54,121 nucleotides of DNA from Gemmatimonadales bacterium (lineage in GTDB: Bacteria; Gemmatimonadota; Gemmatimonadetes; Gemmatimonadales; GWC2-71-9): the NCBI GenBank assembly GCA_036379675.1, contig DASVGF010000051.1:1-54121 (forward strand). The letters run 5' to 3'. Each line of letters starts with the position of its first letter. Position 1 is the first letter of the stretch. Made by a program: the position numbers and the translations under genes. This document shows, one piece after another, positions 1,168 to 18,589 of this stretch. The notes under the pieces are model-generated. The model had not been told where the DNA came from. It saw nothing but the letters and a program-made list of their open reading frames with translations, and searched no databases.

Positions 1168-1213
1168 AGGGGCAAACGCGGCGGCACTGAGGACCGACAT
1201 CGCGCAGGCTGAT

Positions 1214-1354: not shown

Positions 1355-1381
1355 AGTCCCTCCGTGGAGTGAGACGCCCGT

Positions 1382-1741
1382 ATGGCCGACGAGCCGATCG
1401 CCCAACAACTGGTTACGCTCCGCAGGCTGCTCGATGAATTCGACGGCCGCCTGGCGCGCACTCCCATGGCCCCAGTGGGACTTGAGGACCTTAAGGGCAC
1501 GGTCGACACCCTGCGCACGAACATGTGGGCCATCCTCTCTGCCGGACACGGAGCTTTCGCACCGGTTCGGGTGGAACGTCTGAAGCTCCGCCGCGCCATC
1601 GAAGGCCTTAAGGCGATTCGCGCCAGCCTCACTACATCCGGGGCCGGTGCGCTCCACCCCGAGCACATCGAGCTCCAGCTCATTGCGCGGGAGCTCGCCG
1701 AACAGATCGGCAAGCTGGAGAAGTCTGGAGGGGCTACCTAA
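1382..1741 (+). CDS. Hypothetical cassette protein (119 aa, predicted helical)
   Basis: ORF starts 28 nt after R' and its TAA stop (1739-1741) sits inside R'' of the next attC. No family recognised. Overlapping minus-strand ORFs judged GC shadows. Confidence 0.6.
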   Translation: MADEPIAQQLVTLRRLLDEFDGRLARTPMAPVGLEDLKGTVDTLRTNMWAILSAGHGAFAPVRVERLKLRRAIEGLKAIRASLTTSGAGALHPEHIELQLIARELAEQIGKLEKSGGAT

Positions 1742-1837
1742 CAAGCGCATGCAGCTGGCGGGCGCTTCAATGCTAAGGAAGGTTAGATAGTGTCCAAAAC
1801 GGGCAAGTCGCCGCAGCCGATGCGCGGTCCGTTAGGC
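1736..1837 (+). repeat. attC site, type A (102 bp)
   Basis: R'' ACCTAAC 1736-1742, R' GTTAGGC 1831-1837. AAGCGCATGCAGCTGGCGG / GTCGCCGCAGCCGATGCGCGGTCC arms. Conserved loop AAGGAAGGTTAGATAGTG. Confidence 0.9.
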
Positions 1838-1851
1838 AGCCATGACCATTT

Positions 1852-2289
1852 ATGCATGCTGGCATTCTGAAGGCTTTCTTCTTGGGCCAGGCCACGGCCA
1901 CCGAGCTGTCACGGGATTTGGACGTCATTTGGGAGCCATCCGGATCCCGGTCCCGTTCTCGACGGTTCGTCTTTGAGGATCTCGACGAGGATTTCGAGAT
2001 TTATCCCGACCACCTCGTCAGGGTTTGCGACGCTGTTCTCGCAGGCGAAATCGAGGCCCCGAAGCTCGAAGGAGTGGGTGCAGCCCTGTTCACATCCGAT
2101 CACTTCACTTGGGGTGAAGAAGGTGCAGAGGCGGAGAGGGTCGCGCAAACGGTCTCCGACTGGGTAGATCCAGAGATTAACTTTGATCTAAATCTTGAAA
2201 CTACTCAGAAGTTTCGGCATCGGCTTCTTACAGGCGAACACCTTTTTACGCCGGCGGACTGGTGGATGTCGGTGCACCGGCCTGCCTAA
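1852..2289 (+). CDS. Hypothetical cassette protein (145 aa, acidic)
   Basis: ORF starts 15 nt after R'. TAA stop 2287-2289 lies inside R'' GCCTAAC. No family recognised. Confidence 0.6.
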   Translation: MHAGILKAFFLGQATATELSRDLDVIWEPSGSRSRSRRFVFEDLDEDFEIYPDHLVRVCDAVLAGEIEAPKLEGVGAALFTSDHFTWGEEGAEAERVAQTVSDWVDPEINFDLNLETTQKFRHRLLTGEHLFTPADWWMSVHRPA

Positions 2290-2425
2290 CCCGCGCATGC
2301 GGCCGACGGGCCGGAAGGGGCGCCAGCCTCCGCTCGGCCACAGCACGCCCGGAGCGCGCTACGGAACGTAGATTTGTGTGCGGGCCAGCTTGAGGGCCCG
2401 CAGCTGATGCGCCATGTCGTTAGGC
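2284..2425 (+). repeat. attC site, long type B (142 bp)
   Basis: R'' GCCTAAC 2284-2290, R' GTTAGGC 2419-2425. Left arm CCCGCGCATGCGGCCGACGGGCC and right arm GGGCCCGCAGCTGATGCGCC as in 1214-1354. Confidence 0.85.
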
Positions 2426-2433
2426 CGACTGCG

Positions 2434-2691
2434 CTATCGATACACATCGCGGCGGTGGCCGACTTTTACGACAAGCACGGCCCTCATCTGATCGTCGACG
2501 CTGTAGACGACTCGGTAGTCGCCCTGCCGGACTCGGTACTGGTCCTGGCCCGAGAGCTTCTCGCAGCCGTGCGGCCGAGGCTCCGAGGCGAGCGCCTCGA
2601 TGCGAGAGATGATCCTTCTGCGGTCTTTGATGGGAAGCGCTTCCAGCTCTTTGGCGGCGGAAGGCTTGATGAGCAAGCTATAGCTTGCCAC
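2434..2691 (-). CDS. Type II toxin, RelE/ParE family
   Basis: 85 aa. Pattern Y.L.I...A.KEL..LP......I...I..L...P.P.G..KL.G...YR.R.GDYR..Y.......V.V..VGHR..VY typical of RelE/StbE/ParE toxins. Overlaps the upstream antitoxin by 14 nt. Confidence 0.88.
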   Translation of the reverse strand: MASYSLLIKPSAAKELEALPIKDRRRIISRIEALASEPRPHGCEKLSGQDQYRVRQGDYRVVYSVDDQMRAVLVVKVGHRRDVYR

Positions 2692-2938
2692 GCCGTTTCA
2701 GATCCTTGAGGACCTCCGCGAAGGCGAGGCTCGGCTCTCCGGCACGGTCCTCAAAGGCAGCGAGGTCTTCGCTGTCCTCCGCGAGGCTCTGGCGGACGGC
2801 AACGTTGACGAGCTCTGAGAGCGAGCGCTCGGTTTCCGCCGCCTTCACGCGAAGGGCCTTATGAAGGCTCGGATCGAAATAGACGGTGGCCCGCTTCGGG
2901 GCACGCTTGCGAGTAGGCATGCCCAAAACTAACGTCAT
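2678..2938 (-). CDS. Antitoxin, ribbon-helix-helix (CopG/Arc-like)
   Basis: 86 aa. ATVYFDPSLHKALRVKAAETERSLSELVNVAVRQSL is a beta-strand-helix-helix DNA-binding signature with an acidic C-terminal tail. True start may be Met7 (2920). Confidence 0.75.
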   Translation of the reverse strand: MTLVLGMPTRKRAPKRATVYFDPSLHKALRVKAAETERSLSELVNVAVRQSLAEDSEDLAAFEDRAGEPSLAFAEVLKDLKRRGKL

Positions 2939-2952
2939 AGCGCTATAACGTC
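2930..2952 (-). promoter_or_regulatory. Candidate operator of the TA cassette (direct repeat TAACGTCA x2 around ATAGGCTAT palindrome)
   Basis: TAACGTCA at 2930-2937 and 2945-2952 flank ATAG-G-CTAT, immediately 5' of or overlapping the antitoxin start on the minus strand. RHH antitoxins autoregulate through such repeats. Confidence 0.3.
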
Positions 2953-2963
2953 AAAAGGGCAGC

Positions 2964-3065
2964 GGGCTAACAAGCGCATGCAGCCGACAGGCGCTTCAGG
3001 TCTATTGGAAAGTAGGATGGTGCGCAGGCCGGCAAGTCGCCGCAGATGATGCGCGGTCCGTTAGG
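2964..3065 (+). repeat. attC site, type A (102 bp)
   Basis: R'' GGCTAAC 2964-2970, R' GTTAGGC 3059-3065, canonical arms AAGCGCATGCAGCCGACAGG / GTCGCCGCAGATGATGCGCGGTCC. Confidence 0.9.
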
Positions 3066-3082
3066 CCGCTTCAAGGGCATCC

Positions 3083-3685
3083 ATGACCTGGGTAAAGTTC
3101 TTCGCGGCACCTGAGGATTTTCCCCCACTGCTCGAACGCTTTCTCGCCGGGGAGCGTCGTCTCTTTGAGGTTTACTCCGAGCCTGGTCACCACGCTCGCG
3201 AGTTCGCCACTCCTGCTGCCACTCGTTCTCTGTCCCTTGGCCTGGATCCCGCTGGCAGTGGCGTTGCGCTCCACCTTGGGTTGTGGGTCCCGAACGTGAT
3301 GCCAAGGCCCCACGTGCGCCGCATCGAGTTACGCGGCCCTAAATTCCCGCCCGGCAGCTGGCGGGAGACGGTCGAGGGGTGCGGTCTCTTCTGGCTTCAG
3401 ACTGGCGGCCTCTATGAAGACGCCGTTACTGCCTCCGCTATCGGCTGGTTTACGCAGCGTGCGGCTGCTCGGCAGTGCATGGTTCAGCCTGGCCCCGACA
3501 TGGTGGATTGGAAGGCTCACTGGGCCCTGGCGCAGGCGCTCAAGCGCTTCGTTCAGCAGGAGCTCGCCGCGGCGTCTGCTGGACCACACCCGGTCTTGCC
3601 GGACGCCCTCAAACGTCACCGTGACGGCAGCCGGCTCATCGCAGGTCTCGGGACCAAGCAGGAATTCCGCGTGGAAGCGGCCTAA
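3083..3685 (+). CDS. Hypothetical cassette protein (200 aa)
   Basis: Starts 18 nt after R'. TAA stop 3683-3685 lies inside R''. No family recognised. Confidence 0.6.
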   Translation: MTWVKFFAAPEDFPPLLERFLAGERRLFEVYSEPGHHAREFATPAATRSLSLGLDPAGSGVALHLGLWVPNVMPRPHVRRIELRGPKFPPGSWRETVEGCGLFWLQTGGLYEDAVTASAIGWFTQRAAARQCMVQPGPDMVDWKAHWALAQALKRFVQQELAAASAGPHPVLPDALKRHRDGSRLIAGLGTKQEFRVEAA

Positions 3686-3780
3686 CAAGCGCATGCAGCT
3701 GGCGGGCGCTCAGGTCAAAGGAACGTAGGATAGTGTCTATAGGGGGCAAGTCGCCGCAGCTGATGCGCGATCCGTTAGGC
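3680..3780 (+). repeat. attC site, type A (101 bp)
   Basis: R'' GCCTAAC 3680-3686, R' GTTAGGC 3774-3780. Loop CAGGTCAAAGGAACGTAGGATAGTG. Confidence 0.9.
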
Positions 3781-3846
3781 CGATGTCCAACCAGGTGGCT
3801 CTAATCTGGGTTTGTGCCCCAAGGAAAGGAGAGGCGACCGAGTGCC

Positions 3847-4404
3847 TTATCGGCTCCTGACGTTTGGATCAGGCTGGAACGTCACAAAGCCCCCGAGGGT
3901 CCAGCTGACTCCGCTATCGCGTGAGCGCTCGATCAATTGTTCGTACCCCGCCCCACGGGGACGCCAGGTAAGGCGTACCTGAATCGGGACGCCTCTGTCC
4001 AAGCGGGTTCGGAGGAAGCGCCACTCGGCAGCGTCCGGTCGTCCCTCGTAGACCTGGGAGTTCAGCTGGTCATCGACATAGTGCACCATCCAGCGCTGAG
4101 TGGGAGCATCGTACGCCCGTATGACCTTCGCGGTGAAGAGCACCTGGTCATCTTTGACCGCTTGCCAGTGCTCCTCGAAGGCGCAGCGACCAAACAGCGA
4201 CTGACTGTGCACCTTCATGAGGGCGTCCAACACGGTATCACGGCCGGAGACACTATAGCTGCGGCCCTGCCAGTGGCCTTGAAGGAACGCCATAGTCTTG
4301 GCAAGCGAGTCGGCGCACGCGGGCGTGGGTGAGGATTGCGCGTGGGCGGCGCCGCCGACAGTGGAGAGTAGCGCGAGGAGAAGAAGCGCGACCGAGGGAC
4401 GCAT
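3847..4404 (-). CDS. Secreted protein of unknown function (reverse-oriented cassette ORF)
   Basis: Met at 4404 gives MRPSVALLLLALLSTVGGAAHAQ, a signal peptide with an AHA-Q cleavage site. The longer 217-aa ORF start is unlikely. Orientation is opposite to the array. Confidence 0.6.
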   Translation of the reverse strand: MRPSVALLLLALLSTVGGAAHAQSSPTPACADSLAKTMAFLQGHWQGRSYSVSGRDTVLDALMKVHSQSLFGRCAFEEHWQAVKDDQVLFTAKVIRAYDAPTQRWMVHYVDDQLNSQVYEGRPDAAEWRFLRTRLDRGVPIQVRLTWRPRGAGYEQLIERSRDSGVSWTLGGFVTFQPDPNVRSR

Positions 4405-4469
4405 GGGAACTCGTGGGAGAGCTTCCCCCTCTACGGCCCAGCATGGGATAAAGTTTCGTGGGCTGCACG

Positions 4470-4495
4470 GCCTAACCCGCGCAACCAGCGGTGCA
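4470..4495 (+). repeat. attC remnant (left half only, type B-like)
   Basis: GCCTAACCCGCGCA is identical to the first 14 nt of the type B sites. No matching right arm or GTTRRRY before the next ORF. Confidence 0.5.
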
Positions 4496-4520
4496 TTCAA
4501 CTCGGAGCAGACTCGTCGCG

Positions 4521-5081
4521 ATGGGACTCTTGACCTTCAGCATCAACGTCACCCTCGACGGTTGCGTCGACCACCGGGAGGGAATCGCCGACGACGAGAC
4601 ACACGATTTCTTCACCCGTCTCATGAACGAGCGAGGGGCGATGCTGTGGGGTCGTGTCACCTACGAGATGATGGAGAGCTACTGGCCGGCGGTCGCTCGC
4701 GGCGACGAGAAGGCGCCGCCGGCGATGCGCGAGTGGGCGGTCAAGCTTGAGGCCAAGCCGAAGTACGTCGTTTCGTCGACGCGAACGGACTTCCCGTGGA
4801 CCAACAGCCACCGCATTGTCGGCGACTTGCGCACGAGCGTGCAGAAGCTCAAAGACGCTACCCCTGCCGGCGTGCTCCTCGGTAGCGGTAAGCTGGCGAC
4901 CGAGCTGGACCGGCTGGAGCTGATCGACGAGTACAGGTTTCTCCTCCACCCCAGGGTCGCCGGTCACGGACCGACCCTGTACCAGAGCGGGCTGCCCAGC
5001 ACGCGACGGCTCGAGTTGGTCTCGGCGACGCCGCTCCGCAATGGCGCCGTCGCTATGCACTACCGACGCGGGCGCGGTTAA
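4521..5081 (+). CDS. Dihydrofolate reductase family protein (RibD C-terminal domain type)
   Basis: MGLLTFSINVTLDG... start, GRVTYE, KYVVSST and LLGSG motifs typical of PF01872 reductases. TAA stop 5079-5081 lies inside R'' of a short attC. Confidence 0.75.
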   Translation: MGLLTFSINVTLDGCVDHREGIADDETHDFFTRLMNERGAMLWGRVTYEMMESYWPAVARGDEKAPPAMREWAVKLEAKPKYVVSSTRTDFPWTNSHRIVGDLRTSVQKLKDATPAGVLLGSGKLATELDRLELIDEYRFLLHPRVAGHGPTLYQSGLPSTRRLELVSATPLRNGAVAMHYRRGRG

Positions 5082-5139
5082 CAACGGGTTGCAGCGGACG
5101 GTCCACCCCGCAGCCCGCCGCTGAGCCCGGGCGTTAGGC
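5076..5139 (+). repeat. attC site, short type C (64 bp)
   Basis: GGTTAAC 5076-5082 ... GTTAGGC 5133-5139. Arms AACGGGTTGCAGCGG / CCGCTGAGCCCGGGCGTT pair imperfectly. Sequence is unrelated to types A and B. Confidence 0.7.
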
Positions 5140-5203
5140 GGCTACGAAACCAATTTAGGAATCCACATGGGCCTCTCTCTGGCTGTCAGAAGGGCGGCCT
5201 TCG

Positions 5204-5533
5204 GTGCAACGGTCTTGTCCCTGCTGGGCTCGAGCGGCCCAACTCCACAGCGACGATTTTCAACTGATCAACCCCCTGGGCGGAGTGCTGTCGAAAGAGC
5301 AGTACCTAGGCGGCATCGGCTCCGGGCAGATTCACTATTTGTATTGGGAACCTGAAGCAATCGCGGTCCGAGTGTATGGCGACGCTGCGGTGATCCGATA
5401 TCGGTCACAGCTGGAAATCGTCGTCCAGGGTCATCACATCCCGCGCCAGCAGTACTGGCATACTGACCTTTATGAGCGGCATGGCGCAGAGTGGCGAGTC
5501 GTGTGGTCGCATGCGACCGCGGCCCCGTCTTGA
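5204..5533 (+). CDS. SnoaL-like / DUF4440 (NTF2-fold) protein, possibly 5'-truncated
   Basis: LHSDDFQLINPLG..L.KEQYL..I.SG.......E......VRVYGDAAVIRYR ... WRVVWSHAT matches the DUF4440 pattern. Only ~109 aa from a GTG start, so the N-terminal helix appears short. Confidence 0.6.
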   Translation: MQRSCPCWARAAQLHSDDFQLINPLGGVLSKEQYLGGIGSGQIHYLYWEPEAIAVRVYGDAAVIRYRSQLEIVVQGHHIPRQQYWHTDLYERHGAEWRVVWSHATAAPS

Positions 5534-5553
5534 GGACGGGCTCGCGGATCACC

Positions 5554-5654
5554 GTCTAACACGCGCATGCAGCTGATGGCCGCTTCAGGTTTAGGGCACG
5601 TCGAATAGTGCGCAGGCTGAGGAGTCGCCGCAGCTGATGCGCAATCCGTTGGGT
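5554..5654 (+). repeat. attC site, type A (101 bp), R' GTTGGGT
   Basis: R'' GTCTAAC 5554-5560, R' GTTGGGT 5648-5654, arms ACGCGCATGCAGCTGATGG / GTCGCCGCAGCTGATGCGCAATCC. Confidence 0.85.
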
Positions 5655-5676
5655 GGTCGCATTTAGGATTAGACCG

Positions 5677-6129
5677 ATGTGGCCCTGCCGCGTTATATGC
5701 ATCCTCGCACTAAGCGCCTGCGCGCGGCAGCCAGAGCCCGAAACTAGCCCTGCGCTCACCTCCCACGGAGCCGCAGCACTAGCGGTGCTCCAGCGGGGCG
5801 ACTCGGGCAATGGTCCCTTGATCGTGGTCACCACAAAGCCCGTCCCACTCTTGGAGCAGGATCTCTCCGTGTTGGCGGCCGATAGTGTATGGCTGTGGCA
5901 ATCCGATAACCCATATGGCGGACAGCGTCGTTTCTCGGTGCTGCCAGATTCTTACTACGTGCTGCTGGACTTGCGGGAGATCGGGAACTCAGGTGATACC
6001 GCCTGGACCTTTACTGCCATGCTGGAGCGGTGTCCGGGATGGCCATGCCACGAGGAATACAGAATCCGGGTACGGCGGGATAGCGCTGGCTTCGTTCCTG
6101 ATTGGGTCCGGCTGCTGACCATAGAGTGA
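5677..6129 (+). CDS. Lipoprotein of unknown function
   Basis: MWPCRVICILALSAC has a lipobox LSAC. ATG at 5677 chosen over the GTG at 5653, which overlaps R'. Confidence 0.65.
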   Translation: MWPCRVICILALSACARQPEPETSPALTSHGAAALAVLQRGDSGNGPLIVVTTKPVPLLEQDLSVLAADSVWLWQSDNPYGGQRRFSVLPDSYYVLLDLREIGNSGDTAWTFTAMLERCPGWPCHEEYRIRVRRDSAGFVPDWVRLLTIE

Positions 6130-6137
6130 TTTTGGCC

Positions 6138-6235
6138 CCCTAACAGACGCACGCAGCTGGCGGCGCTTCACTCCAAGGAACGTTAGATAGTCCGCGAGCA
6201 GCCCTATCGCTGCAGCTGATGCGCGAGCCGCCGGG
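6138..6235 (+). repeat. attC site, type A, with mutated crossover box (GCCGGGC instead of GTTAGGC)
   Basis: R'' CCCTAAC 6138-6144. Right arm CGCTGCAGCTGATGCGCGAGCC is followed by GCCGGGC (6229-6235) where GTTRRRY is expected. Confidence 0.75.
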
Positions 6236-6256
6236 CCGACAGGATACAGGAGCAAC

Positions 6257-6760
6257 GTGCATACGGGTCGGATAAAGTACAGCTTCTTGATCGCGGCTCT
6301 CCTTGCGTGTCATCACCGTAAGGAATATGAGCGCGACTCAGTCGCGCCGGTCCGTTATCGTGGCCCCCCAGTGCCATCCAGTTCCCCATCGGCGAGCAGG
6401 ACTACAGGAGCGTTGGTGGGCGCGGTTTATGATTGCGGGGGGCACCCACTGGCTGCCGTGCTATTGAACGCGCGTCGCTATGGGGTCGATTCAGAGAGCG
6501 CCCCTGACAGCCTCGCTCAGCTTGTGGATTCAACCTTTGCAACCACTCCCCTCAGACCAGGAAGGTGGGATCTCACCTTTCGTGCGCTCGGTTACGCGAC
6601 TCGCTCGATCGCGGTAACTATTGATTCAGGTGCCATCGATACCCTGATGGTCCAGTTGAATGAGAGTTCGCTCGCAATCGGCGATTGCGTTTGCGCCAAC
6701 GGGGACTTCGGGTCGCAGTGCTGTAAGCCGGTGATCACGCGCGTGTGCGATGTTCCATAA
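6257..6760 (+). CDS. Lipoprotein with carboxypeptidase-regulatory-like (CarboxypepD_reg) beta-sandwich domain
   Basis: LIAALLAC lipobox. GALVGAVYDCGGHPLAAVLL...LRPGRWDLTFRALGYATRSIAVTI resembles the CarboxypepD_reg fold pattern. GTG start. Confidence 0.55.
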   Translation: MHTGRIKYSFLIAALLACHHRKEYERDSVAPVRYRGPPVPSSSPSASRTTGALVGAVYDCGGHPLAAVLLNARRYGVDSESAPDSLAQLVDSTFATTPLRPGRWDLTFRALGYATRSIAVTIDSGAIDTLMVQLNESSLAIGDCVCANGDFGSQCCKPVITRVCDVP

Positions 6761-6798
6761 AACGTCTGGGTGCGATTACGGGGTCGGGAAGCGCTGCG

Positions 6799-6815
6799 GC
6801 CCAACAAGCACACCG
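6799..6815 (+). repeat. Possible attC left-half remnant between two ORFs
   Basis: GCCCAACAAGCACACCG compared with consensus GCCTAACAAGCGCATGC (13/17). No right half. Confidence 0.3.
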
Positions 6816-6824
6816 TCACCTCCC

Positions 6825-7844
6825 ATGATCATGACCATCCTTCATCGTGCAGTCCTGCCGCTCTGCTTCATGATCTTGACCAGCTGTCCTTCACCGAGGC
6901 TCGATCCCACTCCCGTCGCCCAGCCGGAGCCAAGTCGGCACGAGGGGTATGTCGACGCCGGCGCCGGCGTAACGCTCTTTTATCGGTTGGTTGGCGACGC
7001 AAACCCGGATACGGTCATAATTCTCCATGGTGGGCCCGGATTGACGATGGAGTACTTGGCCGGCGACCTCAGACCGCTCGCGGCGCACCATACGCTCCTT
7101 TTCTACGATCAACGAGGCGCTGGCCGTTCTTCACTCGTCAGTGATTCCGCTGCCCTTGATGGACAGCGCTTCGCAGAGGACTTGGAGGCAGTACGGCAAC
7201 ATTTCGGACTCCAGACGGTGACCCTGCTCGGTCACTCGTGGGGCGCTGGGGTCGCCGCGTTGTATGCGGCCCGGTATCCCGACCGGATTGAACGCCTCCT
7301 CATCGTGGACGGGATTCCGCTGCGAGCGGAGGGGCTTGTCCAGGCCTTTCAGGAGTTGGCGGCCCGGCGAGACAGCACAACGCGGCAACAGATGGCGAAG
7401 TGGATGGAGCTTAGGCGCGCCAACCCTGGCGATGTCGCCGCATGTCACGCCTACTATGTGTTATGGTTCCGCCCGTTCGTCGTGGATCCCACCGCGTTGA
7501 GCCGCAGCCGGGGCGACTTCTGCGCGGGCACCACGGAATCTCGGCGCAACAAGATTCTCAGTGTCGACCGATACGTAGCCGCCTCGCTCGGCAGTTGGGA
7601 CTGGCGGCCGGCGCTTCGACGAGTGAACGCCCCGACGTTGATCATTCACGGAGCCGCTGATCCGCTGCCCGTCGCCAGTGCCCGTGAGTGGGCGGCTGCT
7701 CTGCCCGATGCTCGGCTCCTGTTGCTTCAAGGAGTCGGCCACTTTCCGTACCTCGAGACGCCGGATGCCTTCTTTACTGCTGTCGACACGTACTTGCGTG
7801 GCTCCTGGCCGCAGGGCGCCGAGCCCGCGAAGTCGACGCCGTAA
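6825..7844 (+). CDS. Alpha/beta hydrolase lipoprotein (proline iminopeptidase-like)
   Basis: MIMTILHRAVLPLCFMILTSC carries a lipobox. HGGPG oxyanion motif, GHSWG nucleophile elbow and C-terminal GHFP histidine motif are present. Confidence 0.85.
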   Translation: MIMTILHRAVLPLCFMILTSCPSPRLDPTPVAQPEPSRHEGYVDAGAGVTLFYRLVGDANPDTVIILHGGPGLTMEYLAGDLRPLAAHHTLLFYDQRGAGRSSLVSDSAALDGQRFAEDLEAVRQHFGLQTVTLLGHSWGAGVAALYAARYPDRIERLLIVDGIPLRAEGLVQAFQELAARRDSTTRQQMAKWMELRRANPGDVAACHAYYVLWFRPFVVDPTALSRSRGDFCAGTTESRRNKILSVDRYVAASLGSWDWRPALRRVNAPTLIIHGAADPLPVASAREWAAALPDARLLLLQGVGHFPYLETPDAFFTAVDTYLRGSWPQGAEPAKSTP

Positions 7845-7854
7845 TGTGGTCGCG

Positions 7855-7897
7855 GCCTAACCGGCGCTTGGATCTGGCGGCGCGGGTAGGATATTAC
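7855..7897 (+). repeat. attC remnant (left half plus part of loop)
   Basis: GCCTAACCGGCGCTTGGATCTGGCGGCGCGGGTAGGATATTAC parallels consensus GCCTAACCAGCGCATGCAGCTGGCGGCGC..GTTAGATAGTGAC. No right arm. Confidence 0.6.
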
Positions 7898-7914
7898 ATG
7901 ACTACTGAGCAGCA

Positions 7915-7965
7915 GCCTAACAGGCGCATGCAAGTGGCGGCGCTTCAGGTTTAAGGAACACAGGG
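7915..7965 (+). repeat. attC remnant (second left half plus loop start)
   Basis: GCCTAACAGGCGCATGCAAGTGGCGGCGCTTCAGGTTTAAGGAAC, then similarity ends. No GTTRRRY before the next ORF (a weak GTTACCG at 7989). Confidence 0.65.
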
Positions 7966-7997
7966 CGCATTTCTTTCTTGAAGGGCTGGTTACCGCT

Positions 7998-8468
7998 TTG
8001 TACCTCTGGGTCAAGCTTCTCCACGTGGCCGCGGTTGTCGCCTTCCTCGGCAATATTACTACGGGTCTCTTCTGGCATGCCCATGCCGCCCGCACTCGTG
8101 ACCCCCGGCTACTCGCGCATGCGGTCGACGGCATCATCCGGAGTGACCGCCTTTTCACCATTCCGGGTGTCATCGTGATCATCGTAACCGGTGCCGTTGC
8201 AGCGGTTATCGGTGGGTTTCCGATCCTGCGGACTCCTTGGATCCTGTGGTCCTTGGTGCTGTTCGCCGTGTCGGGGCTGGTTTTCGTGTTGCGCGTCGCG
8301 CCCCTCCAGGTCCAGCTCCGAGCTCTTGCGCAGGCTGGGGTTGAACCGGGCGTATGGGATTGGGAACGCTACAAGCGCCTGGCGCGCACCTGGGAGCTGT
8401 GGGGCGCTGTTGCGTTGCTTACGCCCATGGCTGCCCTGGTCCTGATGGTACTCAAGCCGAGCTTCTAG
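7998..8468 (+). CDS. DUF2269-like integral membrane protein
   Basis: 156 aa, four hydrophobic helices. N-terminal LWVKLLHVAAVVAFLGN pattern as in DUF2269. TTG start. Confidence 0.55.
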   Translation: MYLWVKLLHVAAVVAFLGNITTGLFWHAHAARTRDPRLLAHAVDGIIRSDRLFTIPGVIVIIVTGAVAAVIGGFPILRTPWILWSLVLFAVSGLVFVLRVAPLQVQLRALAQAGVEPGVWDWERYKRLARTWELWGAVALLTPMAALVLMVLKPSF

Positions 8469-8483
8469 GAGTGCGCGCCAGGT

Positions 8484-8584
8484 GCCTAACAAGGGCATGC
8501 AGCTGGCGGTCGCTTCAGATCAAAGGAACGTCGGATAGTGTGCATGCGGCCAAGTCGCCGCAGCTGATGTGCGGTCCGTTCGGC
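8484..8584 (+). repeat. attC site, type A (101 bp), R' GTTCGGC
   Basis: R'' GCCTAAC 8484-8490, R' GTTCGGC 8578-8584. Loop CAGATCAAAGGAACGTCGGATAGTG. Confidence 0.88.
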
Positions 8585-8755
8585 AGCGTCGGAGATCAAA
8601 CAGCATCGCTTTGCGTCGGCAGAGCCACAAAGCTGTCGCATCTCAGACAGGTTCCACCCCATTCCCATTTCCGGGTCGGGCGCTACGTTCTTTTTATCCC
8701 CACACACGATCCAGTTACCGGTGCCGCCGACCGGAACCGGCCAGTAGGAGGTCCT

Positions 8756-9871
8756 ATGAAGCCCGCTATGCCCTACCGGGTTCTTGCCCTCTCGCTCCTT
8801 GCGCTGCTGCTGGCGATCCGGCCGGGTGCCGCACAGGGCCGGCTCGCCCTTGGAGTCGCAGCTGGTCCCTCGCCCTATGATCTCGCGGGCACCGGTACCG
8901 GCACCTCCGGAGCCGCGCTCCTGGCCTGGCGGCCGGTCCGCGGTCTGGTGGTGGAGCCCGGCGTTACGGTCTTCAGCTATGTCAGCCAGTTCGGCACACG
9001 CACCAGCCTCCTCTTTCCCGAGCTCAGCGTCCAGGGGGAGCTGGTGCGCGGTTCTTTTCGTCCTTTTATCGGCGGCGGAGCTGGCTCCTCGTTCGGTCTC
9101 CAAGGCGAAGGTGAAATAGCCCTGACACTGCACGCGGTGGGCGGCGCGCGCGTCGACCTCAGCGATGCATGGTCTCTGCTCGGCGAGATGAGGATACGGG
9201 CGGTTCGTCCCTGGACCGGGAACACAGTCGATTTCCTGTTCGGTGTCAGCCGACGGCTTCAGCAGTTCGTGGGGAGACCCGCCGGCCCGACCTATCTTCC
9301 TGCTGTGCCGGTGGACCGTTCCCCAGTGGACCCAGGTCGGTTCGAGCTGGCAGGGCACCTGGGCGTGCATGTGGACCGGCCTGCGGAGGCCGATCGGGTG
9401 GTCACCGACAGAGGTGCGGCGATGTACGCCACAGCGGGTGAGGCGAGCGCCTTCTCGGCACGGCTGGGGTACTGGCTACGTCCCGCACTGGGCCTTCAGT
9501 TTGGTGTGAGTCACTCCTCCAACGCGGCCTGGGAGGGCTCGACGCCGATTCCTCCTCCTGGTTTCGCCAACCGCACCACGTACCTGAGCGCCCGCGGCGT
9601 GGTTCGCACATCGCCGGTGCGGCCCCTGCATCTGTTCGCCGCGGCGGGGCCCGCTCTCATGCTGTATGGCGGGACGGGCGAGAATCTCCGGACCAGAGAT
9701 GCGGATCTGGGTGGTGTACTGGACGTAGGCGCTCGACTGCGCATGACCCCCTGGCTAGGGGTAGAGCTGGCATTGAGCAATTACTTCTACGGCTCACAGT
9801 ATCGGGACGAAGGGAGTGTTTTCCGGCACGACCTGCTGATCTTGCCGGGGCTGGTCTTCTCTTGGAACTAG
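8756..9871 (+). CDS. Exported protein, two outer-membrane beta-barrel-like modules
   Basis: GGAGG RBS 8745-8749, ATG 8756, signal peptide MKPAMPYRVLALSLLALLLAIRPGAAQ. Alternating hydrophobic beta-strand pattern. The upstream 134 aa of the track ORF run through attC and are rejected. Confidence 0.65.
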   Translation: MKPAMPYRVLALSLLALLLAIRPGAAQGRLALGVAAGPSPYDLAGTGTGTSGAALLAWRPVRGLVVEPGVTVFSYVSQFGTRTSLLFPELSVQGELVRGSFRPFIGGGAGSSFGLQGEGEIALTLHAVGGARVDLSDAWSLLGEMRIRAVRPWTGNTVDFLFGVSRRLQQFVGRPAGPTYLPAVPVDRSPVDPGRFELAGHLGVHVDRPAEADRVVTDRGAAMYATAGEASAFSARLGYWLRPALGLQFGVSHSSNAAWEGSTPIPPPGFANRTTYLSARGVVRTSPVRPLHLFAAAGPALMLYGGTGENLRTRDADLGGVLDVGARLRMTPWLGVELALSNYFYGSQYRDEGSVFRHDLLILPGLVFSWN

Positions 9872-9921
9872 AGCGCAACGTCTCCTGCGCGTCCAGCTAA
9901 AGTCGTGTGATCGCTGCCGCT

Positions 9922-10023
9922 GCCTGACAAGCGCATGCATCCGATGGCGCGTCACCTCCAAAGGAAGGATAGGATTGTGCCCAAGCGGAGAAGCCGCCGC
10001 AGCTGATGCGCGGTCCGTTAGGC
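9922..10023 (+). repeat. attC site, type A (102 bp), R'' GCCTGAC
   Basis: R'' GCCTGAC 9922-9928, R' GTTAGGC 10017-10023, arms AAGCGCATGCATCCGATGG / GCCGCCGCAGCTGATGCGCGGTCC. Confidence 0.88.
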
Positions 10024-10047
10024 CGATCGCACGATTGAGGAGGAAGC

Positions 10048-10419
10048 TTGACTTCAGCCCCGTCGTCTCCATGCGGCCCGCTCGCGGTGCTGTTCCTACT
10101 GCTGACCGGCTGCTACACCTGGCAACCGTACGAGCACGGACCACTGCTGATAGCGGGTGAGTCCCTACCACACAATCTGCGAGCCACACGACGCGACAGT
10201 ACTCAGGTCACTGTAACTGCACCCTTCCTTCGGTCGGATACCCTCTTCGGGCATCTCGACGGGGATACTGTTGCGGTTCCTGTTCCCGATATTGCTAGAG
10301 TGCAGCGGCTGGGCTTTAGCACCGTACGGACCTTGGGACTAGTGCTCGTCCCGGCTGCGGCTTTGGGGTTGACATATCTGATCGTCTGTGGGGAGCGTGG
10401 CTGCGAGCCACAGTACTGA
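10048..10419 (+). CDS. Lipoprotein with C-terminal TM helix; paralog of 16634-16978
   Basis: LLLTGC lipobox. Shares CYTWQPY, PFLRSDTLFG, DTV.VP and RTLGL motifs with the ORF downstream of lspA. TTG start. Confidence 0.7.
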   Translation: MTSAPSSPCGPLAVLFLLLTGCYTWQPYEHGPLLIAGESLPHNLRATRRDSTQVTVTAPFLRSDTLFGHLDGDTVAVPVPDIARVQRLGFSTVRTLGLVLVPAAALGLTYLIVCGERGCEPQY

Positions 10420-10430
10420 CTGTGGCAACG

Positions 10431-10530
10431 GCCTAACCAGCGCATGCAGCTGGCGGCGCTTTAGGTCTAAGGAACGTTAGATAGTGACAGTACTTAGAAG
10501 TCGCCGCAGCTCATGCGCGGTCCGTTAGGC
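10431..10530 (+). repeat. attC site, type A (100 bp), closest to consensus
   Basis: R'' GCCTAAC 10431-10437, R' GTTAGGC 10524-10530. Loop TTTAGGTCTAAGGAACGTTAGATAGTG 10460-10486. Confidence 0.92.
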
Positions 10531-10576
10531 TGCACGAGCAGCTGTCCGCCACTTTAACCTGAGCGGGGCCTCGGCA

Positions 10577-11035
10577 ATGATGCGCCTCAACTCTCGTGGC
10601 AGGAGCGGCCTTATCGTTTTAGCCCTTCTCCTTGCCTGTGGCGACTCGCCCTATGAACCGACACCGGGGCAGCTCGTCGGCGAGTTTAGCGGCCGGGCTG
10701 GCCAGGACTTGCAGACTTACGACCTCTTCCTTGCCATCGACGAGGTTGCCGACTCAGTGCGGGGGCTGTGGAGTCTCGCCTTCGTGACAACCTGTGCGAC
10801 CCACGACGGTCCGTTGAGCGGGACGCTGCATGGCGACCAGCTCCGGCTGCGCCTGCGACCGGACGAGGCGTACGAGGCCACCTTCGACCTGACCGTGCGC
10901 GTGCTTCCTGGCGATAGCGTACTGAGCGGAGGCTTGACTGTGGTGGCGGTGGGCACCGAACCCCTCTGCTTTGACGACTTCGCGTCGATCAGACTGCATC
11001 AGGGTGAGGTGGACGGTCTGCCGCTTGGGCGCTGA
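10577..11035 (+). CDS. Lipoprotein of unknown function
   Basis: MMRLNSRGRSGLIVLALLLAC has a positively charged n-region and LLAC lipobox. Confidence 0.65.
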   Translation: MMRLNSRGRSGLIVLALLLACGDSPYEPTPGQLVGEFSGRAGQDLQTYDLFLAIDEVADSVRGLWSLAFVTTCATHDGPLSGTLHGDQLRLRLRPDEAYEATFDLTVRVLPGDSVLSGGLTVVAVGTEPLCFDDFASIRLHQGEVDGLPLGR

Positions 11036-11046
11036 GGCTGTGTGCA

Positions 11047-11144
11047 GCCCAACAAGCGCATGCAGCCGACGGCCGTTCAGGTTCAAGGGAACGTTGGATT
11101 GTCCGCAGTCGAAAAGTCGTCGTAGCTGATGCGGTCCGTTTGAC
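11047..11144 (+). repeat. attC site, type A (98 bp), R'' GCCCAAC / R' GTTTGAC
   Basis: GCCCAAC 11047-11053, GTTTGAC 11138-11144. Arms AAGCGCATGCAGCCGACGG / GTCGTCGTAGCTGATGCGGTCC. Confidence 0.82.
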
Positions 11145-11155
11145 GCCAGGGAGAC

Positions 11156-12178: not shown

Positions 12179-12625
12179 ATGATTCTTCCACTTGGAGGCG
12201 GGGCGAAACTGGTCAGGCTTCTGCCGCCCGGCATTGTCGCTGTTACGATTCTTGCGTGTTCGGATTCGCCCTCGGAGCCGAGGTTCGAGCCCTGCCCTGG
12301 CGAGGCGGTGACGATGGAGGTCAGCGCCGGGCTGACACCACTGTTTACGTGGACCCCTGCCTGTGGCATGGCGTTCCTCGAAGTCTATCCTGCCGCCGGC
12401 GGCAGCGCCCTGTGGACAGTCTATGCGGAGTCGGGTGCGGGTCCGGAGAATCCAATCCCTTCGGGTGTTCGGTACGGTACCACCCCATTGCGTGGTCATA
12501 CGGTCGCCGGGCCCCAGCCGCTGCAAGCAGGCGACTCATATCGCGCTCGCGTCAGTCGCATGCTCTGTGACCAAGGGGCGCTCTGCACTCTCCAGCACGC
12601 GGGTGACGCGTCCTTTCAGCCGTAG
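12179..12625 (+). CDS. Lipoprotein of unknown function
   Basis: ATG 12179 gives MILPLGGGAKLVRLLPPGIVAVTILACSDS (lipobox ILAC). The longer track ORF from 11945 overlaps the previous gene and the attC remnant. Confidence 0.6.
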   Translation: MILPLGGGAKLVRLLPPGIVAVTILACSDSPSEPRFEPCPGEAVTMEVSAGLTPLFTWTPACGMAFLEVYPAAGGSALWTVYAESGAGPENPIPSGVRYGTTPLRGHTVAGPQPLQAGDSYRARVSRMLCDQGALCTLQHAGDASFQP

Positions 12626-14832: not shown

Positions 14833-14838
14833 GTCGCC

Positions 14839-14887
14839 GCCTCACAAGCGCATGCGGCCGCCGGGCTTCATCGATAAGGAATGTCGG
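14839..14887 (+). repeat. attC remnant (left half plus loop start)
   Basis: GCCTCACAAGCGCATGCGGCCGCCGGGCTTCATCGATAAGGAATGTCGG, then similarity ends. Confidence 0.65.
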
Positions 14888-14917
14888 TTGAAACCTGCAT
14901 CGGACCCCGAGCATTCA

Positions 14918-15496
14918 ATGCAAACCGAGCACCTGACTCGCGAGGACCTGGTTTCGGCACTATCGGCTGCGGAAGTGGACGTTGCAGACTTCTTCGCCTC
15001 GCTCACTCCAGACGAGCTTGTTTTGCGGGTGGAGAACGCCTGGACCGCTGCCGAGCAGCTCGCCCATCTCAACGCTGCCGTGAGTGCGGTGGCGAGGGGT
15101 TTTGCAGTTCCGCGGATTATCCTGCGTCTTCGATTCGGTCGGGCCCGGAGCTCCGGACGTAGCTACACGGCACTACGGGACGATTATCGTGCCCGGCTGG
15201 CGGCCGGTGGTCGGGCTTCCGGGCCGTTCGTTCCCAATCGCCATGATCTGCCGACGTCACAGGGTGAAGCGCGTCGCCGTGACTTGCTCGCACGTTGGCA
15301 CAGGGTAAACAATCGGCTTCAGAAGGCGCTCGAGTCGTGGAACGAGCAGGCTCTGAATACGATCCGGCTGCCTCATCCCTTGCTGGGGAAGATCACCGCT
15401 CGGGAGATGATCTACTTCACGTTGTACCACGCCAAGCACCACGTGACTGCGACCAAGAAACGGCTGCCACGCTTCACCGGGTCAAGTGCCGGCTGA
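14918..15496 (+). CDS. DinB family protein
   Basis: ATG 14918. WTAAEQLAHL near the N-terminus and FTLYHAKHH near the C-terminus fit the DinB/YfiT-type four-helix metal-binding His pattern. TGA stop 15494-15496 lies inside GGCTGAC. Confidence 0.6.
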   Translation: MQTEHLTREDLVSALSAAEVDVADFFASLTPDELVLRVENAWTAAEQLAHLNAAVSAVARGFAVPRIILRLRFGRARSSGRSYTALRDDYRARLAAGGRASGPFVPNRHDLPTSQGEARRRDLLARWHRVNNRLQKALESWNEQALNTIRLPHPLLGKITAREMIYFTLYHAKHHVTATKKRLPRFTGSSAG

Positions 15497-15520
15497 CAAG
15501 CGCATTCAGCCGATAAGCAG
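15491..15520 (+). repeat. attC remnant (left half only)
   Basis: GGCTGACAAGCGCATTCAGCCGATAAGCAG compared with GCCTAACAAGCGCATGCAGCCGAC. Confidence 0.55.
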
Positions 15521-16091: not shown

Positions 16092-16589
16092 GTGTCTCCT
16101 AAAGTACGGTCGTTCTGGCCACTCCTGCTGAGTGTGCTCCTGACCGATTGCGCGACCAAGCAGTTCGCCATCGAGCGCCTCGCGCCGGTTGCCACACCGC
16201 ACGAGGTGCTGGGAGACTGGGTCAGACTCGTCCTTGTTTATAACCGCGGGGCGGCCATGGGTCTTTCCCTGGGATCCTGGGCTCGACCGCTCCTGGCGGT
16301 GGTCACGGTGGCGATGCTGGGGCTCTTGTGGGTGTGGTATCGGCGGACCAGGCGGCGGGATTGGATGACGGCGGCCGCACTGGGGCTGATCGCGGGCGGG
16401 GCGCTGGGGAATCTGCTGGACCGCCTGCGGTGGGACCGGGGGGTGGTGGACTTCATCGACATTGGCTGGGGATCGGTTCGCTTCTGGACTTTCAATGTGG
16501 CCGATGTCGGCATCACCTGCGGTGCCCTGTGGCTGGCGTGGCGACTGAGCCGCCGTCAGGCCGAACCACCTGAGCCGGCTGCGGTCTGA
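16092..16589 (+). CDS. lspA: Lipoprotein signal peptidase (signal peptidase II)
   Basis: LLTDCATKQ (conserved D/K), NRGAAMG, GGALGNLLDR, VVDFID and FNVADV motifs align with E. coli LspA. GTG start. TGA stop lies inside GTCTGAC. Confidence 0.9.
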   Translation: MSPKVRSFWPLLLSVLLTDCATKQFAIERLAPVATPHEVLGDWVRLVLVYNRGAAMGLSLGSWARPLLAVVTVAMLGLLWVWYRRTRRRDWMTAAALGLIAGGALGNLLDRLRWDRGVVDFIDIGWGSVRFWTFNVADVGITCGALWLAWRLSRRQAEPPEPAAV

Positions 16590-16608
16590 CCAGCGAGGCC
16601 GGTTGGGC
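16584..16608 (+). repeat. Possible minimal attC relic after lspA (GTCTGAC-N11-GTTGGGC)
   Basis: An RYYYRAC-like heptamer contains the lspA stop and is followed 11 nt later by GTTGGGC (the same R' variant as 5648). Too short to fold as a functional attC. Confidence 0.25.
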
Positions 16609-16633
16609 CGAGCCCGAAATCGGTGGAGGATTC

Positions 16634-16978
16634 ATGCGGTCATGGAACGCCTGGTTTCTCGCAGGTCTCGCGCTCTTTCTGGGAAGCTGCACCTACTGGG
16701 AGCCCTATGCTCCACTCGCATCTACGGGTCCATCACCGGACTTGCCGTCTTCACTCCAGGTCGTATCCGACACCGGCTCACCCCTGCTGCTCACCGAGCC
16801 ATTTGTCAGGGCCGACACCCTCTTCGGCCGCACCGGTCGGGACACCGTGCGGCTTCCGCTCCACCAGCTGCGTGAAGTACAGCGTCAACGGGTACATGGA
16901 TTGCGGACCCTCGGCTTGATTGCAGGCGTGGGCGCGGTATGGATCACTGTAGGGCTGTACGGTGGCGGGCTGGAATAG
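16634..16978 (+). CDS. Lipoprotein with C-terminal TM helix; paralog of cassette ORF 10048-10419
   Basis: LALFLGSC lipobox. CTYWEPY, PFVRADTLFG, DTVRLP and RTLGL motifs are shared with the cassette protein. Confidence 0.7.
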   Translation: MRSWNAWFLAGLALFLGSCTYWEPYAPLASTGPSPDLPSSLQVVSDTGSPLLLTEPFVRADTLFGRTGRDTVRLPLHQLREVQRQRVHGLRTLGLIAGVGAVWITVGLYGGGLE

Positions 16979-17003
16979 GTCACGGCGCATGGAACTGGGA
17001 GGG
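16977..17003 (+). repeat. Possible attC left-half relic
   Basis: AGGTCAC-G-GCGCATG-GAACTGG-GAGG compared with GCCTCAC-AA-GCGCATG-CAGCTGG-CGG. It starts at the stop codon of the preceding ORF. Confidence 0.3.
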
Positions 17004-17007
17004 GATC

Positions 17008-17391
17008 ATGGAGACTGTGGACCGTGCGTTCGGGTGGCTGCTGATCGTCGGAGGGGTCCTGCATGCGATCGGCTCATGGACGGGTTACAGGACTACGCCC
17101 GAGACGCTCCTCTGGGCCCTCGCGGGCTCGCTGGCGGCCCTGCTCGTGGCCGCGGTCAACCTGCTGCGGGCGGGCCGGCCGGGCGACCTTCCGCTGGCGT
17201 GGGTGAGCCTTGGCGGATCCGTCGCGTGGATGGCGGTGGCCCTCGGCTTCGGGATCGTGATCGGGAACCTCCTCGACCCTCGCGCGCTGATCCATATGCT
17301 CAACGCGCTGGTTCTGGCGGGGATGAGCCTGCGTACGGTCGGGCGTGCGAAAAAGGGGGCGCAGTATCCCCGAGGGCGCGGCGGAACCTGA
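17008..17391 (+). CDS. Integral membrane protein of unknown function
   Basis: GGGAGGGG RBS then ATG 17008. Four predicted hydrophobic helices. Confidence 0.55.
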   Translation: METVDRAFGWLLIVGGVLHAIGSWTGYRTTPETLLWALAGSLAALLVAAVNLLRAGRPGDLPLAWVSLGGSVAWMAVALGFGIVIGNLLDPRALIHMLNALVLAGMSLRTVGRAKKGAQYPRGRGGT

Positions 17392-17542
17392 ATTTTCTGC
17401 GGGCGCGGTAGCGTGCCAGGTGAGTGGTCTGCCAATACTGAGTCGCCCTCCTTCCACTTAACCGGGCCCTAGCCGTCCCCGCATAGCCTCTTCAGATTTC
17501 GAGCAGCCTGATCCTGTGTTTGGCAGCGTGGAGCCGCGTTGG

Positions 17543-17899
17543 ATGACCGTGAGCGCAAGCTTCAGAGCCTTCGTCCTCGAACAACTCGCCCGTGAGGTTC
17601 AGGGCATCCGCGGGCGGAACATGTTCGGCGGGGTGGGGATCTACAGTGGGGAGCTTTTCTTTGCGCTGATTGCCGATGACTCCCTGTACTTCAAGGTAGA
17701 CGAATCGAATCGGCCGGAGTTCGAGGCCAGAGGCATGGGTCCCTTTCAACCGTACGGCGAAGACGGCGAGGTGATGCAATACTACCGTGTGCCCGAGGAT
17801 CTGCTCGATGACCCCGAAGTGTTGGGCCAATGGGCTGAGAAAGCGATCAGTGTGGCACGCCGTGCCCGGCGCGGGCCTCCTCGCCGGCGCGGCGCCTGA
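17543..17899 (+). CDS. TfoX N-terminal domain protein
   Basis: MFGGVGIYSGELFFALIADDSLYFKVD....EF...G..PF......G.....YY.VP matches the TfoX_N pattern. Confidence 0.7.
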   Translation: MTVSASFRAFVLEQLAREVQGIRGRNMFGGVGIYSGELFFALIADDSLYFKVDESNRPEFEARGMGPFQPYGEDGEVMQYYRVPEDLLDDPEVLGQWAEKAISVARRARRGPPRRRGA

Positions 17900-17935
17900 G
17901 TGTCAGGAAACCGGCAGAACAGGAAGGAAGCCTCG

Positions 17936-18589
17936 ATGGTTCCAGCACGCGAAGCCCTCGCCCGGCTGCGGGAAGGGAACCTCCGGTTCGCTTCGAACGT
18001 CGGTGGCTCCCATCCATACCCGGCTCACGTGCGGCGGGCCGAGCTGGCCTCCGGCCAGCAGCCGTTCGCCATCATACTCGGCTGCTCGGACTCGCGGGTG
18101 CCGGCCGAGATCGTGTTCGATCAGGGATTGGGCGACCTTTTCGTCATTCGCGTTGCCGGCAACATCGTGGCCCCCTCCCAGGTCGGCAGCGTCGAGTTTG
18201 CCGCCGCCCGGTTCAATACCCGGCTGGTGGTAGTGCTGGGACACTCGCAGTGCGGCGCGGTCCTGGCCACGCTGGAAGAGCTTCAAAGGCCGACGGAGAA
18301 CCAGTCTCGCAACCTGCGGGCAATCGTCGATCGGGTGCGCCCCTCCGTCGAGGGGCTGCTGGCAACCGGACTACGGCACGATCTGGACGCCCTCATGCCG
18401 CACGCGGTTCGGGCTAACATCCGCGCATCCGTCAACCACCTGCGCCACGGCTCCGAGGTGCTGGAGCAGCTGATTCAGGACGAAGGCCTGCGCGTCGTCG
18501 GCGCCGAGTACTCACTGGAAACCGGCGTGGTGGACTTCTTCGACGGCGCTCCCGCAATTGAAGGCGTGTCGGTTCTCGAGGAGGCGTAG
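17936..18589 (+). CDS. Beta-class carbonic anhydrase
   Basis: CSDSRVPAEIVFDQGLGDLFVIRVAGN and VVLGHSQCGAV zinc-ligand motifs. AGGAAGG RBS upstream of ATG 17936. Confidence 0.88.
   Translation: MVPAREALARLREGNLRFASNVGGSHPYPAHVRRAELASGQQPFAIILGCSDSRVPAEIVFDQGLGDLFVIRVAGNIVAPSQVGSVEFAAARFNTRLVVVLGHSQCGAVLATLEELQRPTENQSRNLRAIVDRVRPSVEGLLATGLRHDLDALMPHAVRANIRASVNHLRHGSEVLEQLIQDEGLRVVGAEYSLETGVVDFFDGAPAIEGVSVLEEA

Follow-up and report, generated by a model that had tools for sequence, protein, structure and literature searches.

The window analyzed here, a stretch of 54,121 nt that constitutes an entire contig (C51) of a Gemmatimonadales assembly (2.78 Mb in 268 contigs, 80% complete), contains an array of integron gene cassettes and two genes for small, mutually similar lipoproteins, one of them within the recognizable array and the other past its last detectable attC site. 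A preliminary description of the locus had proposed that this pair represents either a cassette that was duplicated and fixed at the array end or a chromosomal gene family that feeds cassette genesis. The question is where the second gene came from, i.e., whether it is a copy of the first, an ordinary gene that lies next to the array, or a cassette of separate origin that has lost its recombination sites.

The two genes and their products

Both open reading frames are present on the forward strand as described:

10048..10419, + strand, cassette gene for P0001 (123 aa), TTG start 5 nt 3' of a GAGGAGG Shine-Dalgarno sequence, clade A
16634..16978, + strand, probable fossil cassette gene for P0002 (114 aa), ATG start after a GGAGG Shine-Dalgarno sequence, clade B

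P0001 and P0002 have the same architecture and align with 40/104 identities (38%) and 54% positives (BLASTP, E=2e-17), in agreement with the 35-40% identity that had been estimated by eye. All motifs quoted earlier were found, namely CYTWQPY/CTYWEPY after the lipobox, PFLRSDTLFG/PFVRADTLFG, RTLGL and a C-terminal hydrophobic helix. When all six frames of the 2.78-Mb assembly were searched with P0002, only P0002 itself and the P0001 gene (E=2.1e-13, 42% identity) were returned, i.e., the host genome contains exactly two family members; the E value is far below the limit set in advance for non-significant similarity (E > 0.01 in a genome-sized search). Judged by these alignments, the 123-aa and 114-aa products are homologous, and paralogs of each other.

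A lipoprotein signal was found in both proteins, with the lipobox LLTG-C in P0001 and FLGS-C in P0002, the cysteine of which is invariant in an alignment of 46 sequences; both are predicted to be lipoproteins, i.e., substrates of Lgt and LspA. An AF2 model of P0002 based on the 46-sequence alignment (mean pLDDT 81.8) comprises a signal helix (residues 2-17), six strands that form a small barrel (residues 20-87) and a helix (residues 89-109) that corresponds to the hydrophobic C-terminus. The predicted topology is a periplasmic barrel of ~65 residues with an N-terminal lipid, a C-terminal transmembrane helix and a cytoplasmic tail of 4-9 residues. The best Foldseek matches were Hfq/Sm proteins and designed SH3 barrels (E=0.03-0.1, target-normalized TM-scores 0.5-0.7), and the putative lipoprotein 2k57 was matched as well, all within E 0.03-0.14; no match at E<=0.001 was obtained in the PDB, and the viral models yielded nothing useful. 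No family of Pfam or NCBIfam was matched up to E=0.1, and no PDB sequence matched the family profile up to E=5.

Cassette array and integrase

A cassette was defined as an open reading frame followed by its own attC site (an R''-L''-loop-L'-R' imperfect hairpin with RYYYAAC / GTTRRRY cores), with the R' end of the preceding site upstream. A screen for R''/R' pairs with ungapped arm complementarity returned only an odd 60-nt site (5078-5137). Because extrahelical bases defeat ungapped arms, such a simple hairpin screen misses sites, and half-site matching and a covariance model were used instead. Direct repeats and half-site matching delimited a family of imperfect palindromes of ~100 nt (some ~146 nt) on the + strand, which start with GCCTAAC and end with GTTAGGC, and the covariance model (R1) was built from 11 of the window's own sites. 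R1 reported 11 strong sites from 1212 to 11146, all of one type and on the + strand, and about six weak ones (5074, 7913, 12126, 12600, 14157 and 14837). The last detected attC is the weak site at 14837-14936; beyond 14936 no convincing attC was found in the window by R1, and the remaining contigs of the host genome contain no sites of the R1 type. No Rfam family matches the sites of the window. R1 was trained on the array of the window and may miss other types of attC, which makes the calls of 'no attC' at the other loci mentioned below weak ones. Because of assembly gaps, these site counts apply to the window and may not cover the whole array of the genome.

The 10048 gene is flanked by two strong sites:

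9920..10026, + strand, attC 5' of the 10048 cassette (R1 95.7 bits, E=2e-23; R'' CCTGAC..., R' GTTAGGC at 10017-10023; also seen in the half-site matches)
10429..10533, + strand, attC of the 10048 cassette itself (R1 107.7 bits, E=1e-26; R' GTTAGGC at 10524-10530)

The cores that flank the cassette are CCTGAC/CCTAAC and GTTAGGC. With its own attC after the open reading frame and the R' end of the preceding site upstream, the 10048 gene is a bona fide integron cassette, complete and ~507 bp in length.

An OMP-like beta-barrel gene adjoins the P0001-type gene both in the window (8756-10419) and in a Gemmatimonadales MAG (L010, 4842-6342), with 70% and 58% amino acid identity. The spacer between the two genes is occupied by the attC at 9920-10026 in the window and measures 13 nt in L010, the surroundings of which (ABM, DUF4440, thioesterase, GNAT and HAD genes) are cassette-like, with spacers of 10-20 nt and without attC. 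The L010 locus looks like a fully fossilized array segment or a two-cassette unit that was co-inherited.

The sole integron integrase of the assembly is intact and located on a 2.9-kb contig, C157 (TIGR02249, 419 bits), where a putative attI (GTTAGAC) and then a first cassette, cut off by the end of the contig, lie 3' of intI. In this segment (C157:1297-2918) intI is co-directional with the first cassette, an HNH-like ORF, and not divergent as in classical integrons; the GTTAGAC lies ~300 nt past intI and may be the attI crossover. No overlap between C157 and the window was found in the assembly; it is plausible that the integrase of C157 belongs with the array of the window. The homogeneous attC sites (11 strong ones of one type), together with a flank position that is common to the array and to its counterpart in a syntenic relative (L007), characterize the array as a sedentary chromosomal integron. 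Related Gemmatimonadales genomes contain several arrays each, with R1-type attC sites numbering at least 62 in G139, at least 70 in G059 and at least 32 in G395; the scoring covered 150 candidates in each genome.

Distal end of the array

The region around and beyond the 16634 gene contains the following features:

16092..16589, + strand, accessory lspA (signal peptidase II; Peptidase_A8, E=1.2e-34; TIGR00077, 83.9 bits)
17008..17391, + strand, gene for a 127-aa membrane protein, starting 29 nt past the P0002 stop; last variable gene before the flank
17516..18589, + strand, TfoX_N and beta-carbonic anhydrase genes (Pfam), chromosomal flank at the distal array end, 82% and 79% identical at the nucleotide level to L007 12831-14068

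The 16634 gene does lie directly 3' of lspA, as had been reported. It had also been placed just outside the recognizable array; it is situated past the last detectable attC, but still inside what appears to be the decayed tail of the array. Five small genes on the same strand (for a DinB_2 protein, a 122-aa lipoprotein, LspA, P0002 and the 127-aa membrane protein) fill the interval from the last weak attC to TfoX, and no homologs of these five were found at the corresponding place in L007. There the attC sites are intact almost to the flank, the last one (12264-12401) lying 430 nt before TfoX. Because the syntenic L007 keeps attC near TfoX and lacks the five tail genes at this place, the variable region of the window is taken to reach ~17.5 kb and not to end with the last visible attC, which would place P0002 within a decayed tail rather than outside the array.

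At 14840-14864 and 15492-15516 the 5' halves of attC sites are present alone, with the next gene starting immediately after each of them. Together with the remnant at 16985-16997 (see below), these segments suggest loss of the 3' half at most of the distal sites of the window.

Boundaries of the 16634 gene

At the 16634 gene R1 scored at most 10.5 bits, and only attC remnants are present, 16 nt from a 3' end and 13 nt from an L'' arm; the gene is accordingly classed as a former rather than a present cassette:

16593..16608, + strand, remnant of an attC 3' end, GCGAGGCCG-GTTGGGC, R' core at 16602-16608; candidate 5' boundary of the former P0002 cassette
16985..16997, + strand, remnant of the downstream attC (L'' arm), GCGCATGGAACTG; R'' box and whole 3' half gone

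These motifs fall exactly at the two flanks of P0002. The pattern of the first matches six times in the window (0.00 expected), the other five matches being attC 3' ends, and that of the second eight times (0.05 expected), the other seven being attC 5' halves; both patterns were drawn up after the relics had been seen, so that these chance expectations are flattering, and the position and order of the relics weigh more than the counts.

A BLASTN comparison of the window with L007 gave three matching blocks only, corresponding to the P0002 gene, TfoX and the carbonic anhydrase. The P0002 block (window 16602-16981 versus L007 7969-8348, 76% nucleotide identity) begins with the GTT in the R' core of the attC that precedes the gene in L007 and ends 3 nt past the stop codon. 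Regarding the 5' side, the 44 nt that precede the ATG (GCGAGGCCGGTTGGGCCGAGCCCGAAATCGGTGGAGGATTCATG in the window, GCGCGGTCCGTTAGGCCGAGCGCGGAGTCGGTGGAGGATTCATG in L042, which holds the closest ortholog) are identical in 37 of 44 positions and take in the terminal 9 nt of the attC stem, the R' core and the leader of the cassette; 5' of this stretch the similarity to L042 is gone, and the stop codon of lspA is found there. Regarding the 3' side, the sequence after the P0002 stop is TAGGTCACGGCGCATGGAACTGG in the window versus TAGG(C/T)C..ACGGAGCGCCGGCCTAACAAGCGCATGCAGCTGG in the orthologs, i.e., ACGG and the L'' arm are retained in the window, whereas the R'' box is missing, as is all of the attC 3' of the arm.

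Orthologs in other arrays

In a large protein collection 30 relatives of P0002 (45-83% identity) and 16 relatives of P0001 (50-91% identity) were found; the two sets do not overlap, and no Pfam domain was detected among their members. Back-translated pattern scans of public genome and metagenome collections yielded one locus each. The DNA context of several relatives was searched with R1, and the question raised earlier, whether other homologs carry attC sites, was answered in the affirmative for orthologs of both copies, in other Gemmatimonadales arrays and with the same type of attC. Regarding P0002, an ortholog in L007 (74%; 8001-8345) lies between attC sites at 7831-7978 and 8362-8470, and one in L043 (73%; 1762-2103) between sites at 1634-1739 and 2121-2227; the closest relative (83%, L042) is followed directly by an attC at 414-517, on a contig that begins inside the preceding attC. 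Regarding P0001, an ortholog in L009 (P0038, 78%) is located between attC sites at 2799-2903 and 3309-3396. The neighbors of the attC-flanked orthologs differ from locus to locus, both for the 16634 type (L007, L042, L043 and L044) and for the 10048 type (L009 and L013/L059), and both types, as far as these contexts indicate, circulate as cassettes with the same type of attC as in the window.

In L044 (792-1516) and L045 (1205-1929) an attC was seen on the 5' side only, and the P0002-type gene is followed 17 nt on by a DUF1801 gene; this arrangement looks like a two-gene cassette that arose via loss of the intervening attC. In another genome (G257:C31:48390-49251; L013/L059) a P0001-type copy of 55% identity lies in one cassette and a third, more distant member of the family in the cassette next to it, each with attC sites on its flanks. 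The presence of deeply diverged paralogs together in one array, as in the window and in G257, is thus a recurring pattern.

Around the clade A and B members without attC in L048, L062, L010, L050 and L049, nothing convincing in the way of relics was found. L008, where a clade-B member is one of 29 small ORFs on the same strand, showed no conserved repeats and no convincing R1 match.

Phylogeny and selection

Trees were calculated from 77 family members, and then from 83 with the long forms described below included, as quick IQ-TREE runs on few alignment columns, in which many forks are unresolved. P0001 belongs to clade A (n=21, SH-aLRT 96-97) and P0002 to clade B (n=30, SH-aLRT 99); the two clades are grouped (SH-aLRT 92) and nested within more divergent members. 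The sister of P0002 is P0003, which is attC-linked, and P0002 is nested among P0004, P0007 and P0008, all of them attC-flanked; P0003, P0004 and P0007 are among the relatives of P0002 with attC flanks. Since P0001 and P0002 are only 38% identical, fall into different clades and each have orthologs of 74-91% identity in other arrays, they appear to belong to an old family carried by cassettes and to have been acquired independently of each other.

The dN/dS ratio of P0002 versus its cassette orthologs is 0.07-0.45 and that of P0001 versus P0038 is 0.26. Because of the former values P0002 is considered to have evolved under constraint, and the gene, which is intact, is evidently under purifying selection.

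Origin of the 16634 gene

The 16634 gene is probably a fossil cassette that lies in the decayed tail of the array and was acquired independently of the 10048 cassette; in the lack of an intact attC on either side, we infer its cassette past from the relics and the orthologs. The proposed course of events is as follows. The window would show the distal portion of an integron array in the chromosome of a soil Gemmatimonadales bacterium, and both lipoprotein genes would have entered this array as separate cassettes that belong to two old sister clades. The 10048 cassette is still complete, and its excision by the integrase would presumably be possible in principle. In the old distal tail, deletions would have cut the upstream attC of the 16634 gene to its last 16 nt and the downstream attC to a short arm, and thereby joined the gene to the accessory lspA on its 5' side and to the small membrane-protein gene on its 3' side. 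The 16634 gene would no longer be excisable and would be inherited as an ordinary gene, kept intact by purifying selection.

A chromosomal source was considered as well, i.e., that the 16634 gene is an ordinary gene beside the array and that the cassettes of clade B were made from it or from its orthologs. This is unlikely. It would account for the missing intact attC and would agree with the chromosomal distribution of the wider family across the class, and the main observation in its favor comes from a congeneric genome, G245, in which a clade-B member without attC is located 1.2 kb 5' of the same carbonic anhydrase. That copy could mark an ancestral chromosomal position, but it is only 41% identical to P0002, compared with 85% amino acid identity for the adjoining carbonic anhydrase. 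A clade-B pseudogene with two in-frame stops lies ~17 kb past the distal end of an array of at least 30 sites in G139 (G139:C4:154784-155104; L049); although its position could be read in the same way, it is the dead fossil counterpart of the intact gene of the window, and the copies of G245 and G139 fit repeated fossilization at array ends. A source gene would not be expected to keep an attC end and a cassette leader on its 5' side and an attC arm on its 3' side, nor to lose its homology to the cassettes exactly at the cassette boundaries. Moreover, P0002 is nested among attC-flanked genes and not basal to them, and L007 has other genes at the position in question, its ortholog being a normal cassette 4.5 kb upstream. 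As far as the 16634 gene itself is concerned, the earlier proposal of a chromosomal gene that feeds cassette genesis is thus not supported, in view of the attC relics and of the attC flanks of the closest relatives.

The neighborhood of lspA raises a further possibility, compatible with the fossil-cassette origin, namely that the accessory LspA processes the lipoprotein and that selection rather than neutral decay removed the attC between the two genes. The lspA of the window is a second genomic copy, 54% identical to the housekeeping lspA over the comparable C-terminal part (the latter gene is split over two contig ends, C87 with ileS, a dksA-like gene and the lspA N-terminus, and C139 with the lspA C-terminus and rluD), and the lipobox protein begins 44 nt after it. 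Such a functional pairing is improbable, since at ~40 other family loci no lspA was found within 1.5 kb and since erosion has affected all attC sites of the distal 6 kb, not only the one between lspA and P0002. The adjacency of the two genes is best explained by loss of the attC between neighboring cassettes. As a trait of the family, adjacency to lspA was rejected, no other locus showing it. Nor was a homolog of the 127-aa membrane protein found beside other family members; the neighbors of P0002 are shared with no homolog, as expected for cassettes, which shuffle.

Duplication of the 10048 cassette in place, followed by fixation of the copy at the distal end of the array, is the least credible of the proposals and can be set aside, since the shared array, strand and architecture and the frequency of paralogous cassettes in large arrays (PMC1382264) are outweighed by an identity of only 38%, by closer orthologs (74-91%) of each gene in the arrays of other organisms and by the long branches between two clades with SH-aLRT values of 96-99, so that any duplication is older than the spread of the two clades and happened outside this array; fixation at the array end is the part of the earlier proposal that is retained.

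The wider family

Within the order, 401 genomes were searched with the family profile, and 121 contained a match. A sample of 301 genomes drawn from the whole phylum yielded 93 with a match, among them members of further orders of the class Gemmatimonadetes, and none of those listed is from outside this class. Scores above 100 bits (clades A and B) were confined to the genus of the window and one other genus. The attC-linked clades occur only in two genera of one family, and at least three separate attC-associated groups are seen on the tree. Members outside arrays are found in G059 (4 copies), G032 (10-11 copies) and G153 (7 copies), none of them on contigs or at positions with R1 attC; in G059 the family copies lie away from attC although there are at least 70 R1-type sites elsewhere in the genome. 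Two congeneric pairs of loci (L025/L031 and L019/L021) have flanking genes around the copies in common.

At least 11 genomes encode a long form of ~530-545 aa, the N-terminus of which is the same lipobox-barrel-TM module. Over ~500 residues the long forms compared (n=7) share 41-66% identity, and a conserved gene is located 3' of the long form in every comparison, which spans two families of the order. In the long-form loci (L055 and L063-L068, e.g., G391:C6:60688-60999) the module is followed by a domain of ~380 aa without a Pfam match. These comparisons indicate that a core gene passed on by vertical descent includes the lipobox-barrel-TM module as well. From the long form one may speculate, by analogy, that the barrel is a periplasmic binding or sensing module.

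The family as a whole appears to be mostly chromosomal and class-wide in the Gemmatimonadetes, with the cassette clades nested inside it. Owing to this nesting, the idea of a chromosomal family that feeds cassette genesis retains some substance at the level of the family, where a link between chromosomal genes and cassettes seems reasonable. That the family is a traceable case of repeated cassette genesis from resident genes is offered as a tentative reading, rather doubtful at present. If the direction from chromosome to cassette were true, the integron of this lineage would have repeatedly made cassettes from host genes, and the family would provide matched 'before' and 'after' sequences for the attachment of attC to genes. 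How cassettes originate is an open question (Cury et al. 2016, PMC4889954), and the homogeneity of attC sites within arrays has been taken to suggest local cassette creation (Cury et al. 2016, PMC4889954); a family with both core chromosomal and cassette forms is a reasonable place to study it.

Comparison with known systems

Integrons have already been recorded in Gemmatimonadota (PMC8618304). Paralogous cassettes and attC erosion are both known, and none of the processes described here is new in kind; the window is a well-resolved example of them in a little-studied phylum and in an unnamed protein family. It offers a base-by-base record of the loss of mobility, in which the leader was kept, as was the crossover core of the attC 5' of the gene, and the rest was lost while the gene remained, to judge from its substitutions, under purifying selection. 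Comparison with the syntenic L007 also corrects the boundary of the array to ~17.5 kb.

The two proteins resemble SH3/Sm-like lipoproteins of the YgdI/YgdR (DUF903) type (PDB 2k57), in which a lipobox is followed by a small beta-barrel of ~60 residues, and 2k57 is among the Foldseek matches. They differ from this type by the absence of any Pfam, NCBIfam or PDB sequence match, by a weak fold match (E ~0.03-0.14) and by the additional C-terminal transmembrane helix. Given the missing sequence match and the weak fold match, membership in YgdI/YgdR (DUF903) is not supported.

For decaying chromosomal integrons, such as those of Xanthomonas, loss of attC sites, fused cassettes and the fixation of cassettes have been described. 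The window is like these in that recombination sites were lost, cassettes were fixed and genes without attC are found at the far end. The same features liken it to CALIN elements (Cury et al. 2016, PMC4889954). Unlike decayed integrons and CALIN elements, the host has an intact integrase gene, the proximal attC sites of the window are near-perfect and the decay is confined to the distal tail.

In Vibrio arrays, ~25% to >44% of the cassettes are paralogous (Boucher et al. 2006, PMC1382264). As in the sedentary chromosomal integrons of Vibrio, members of one family are present in the window as separate cassettes of a large array with homogeneous attC sites. Unlike in Vibrio, the host is a soil member of the Gemmatimonadales, and the copies are deeply diverged (38% identity) rather than near-identical repeats, one of the two having become a gene without an attC.
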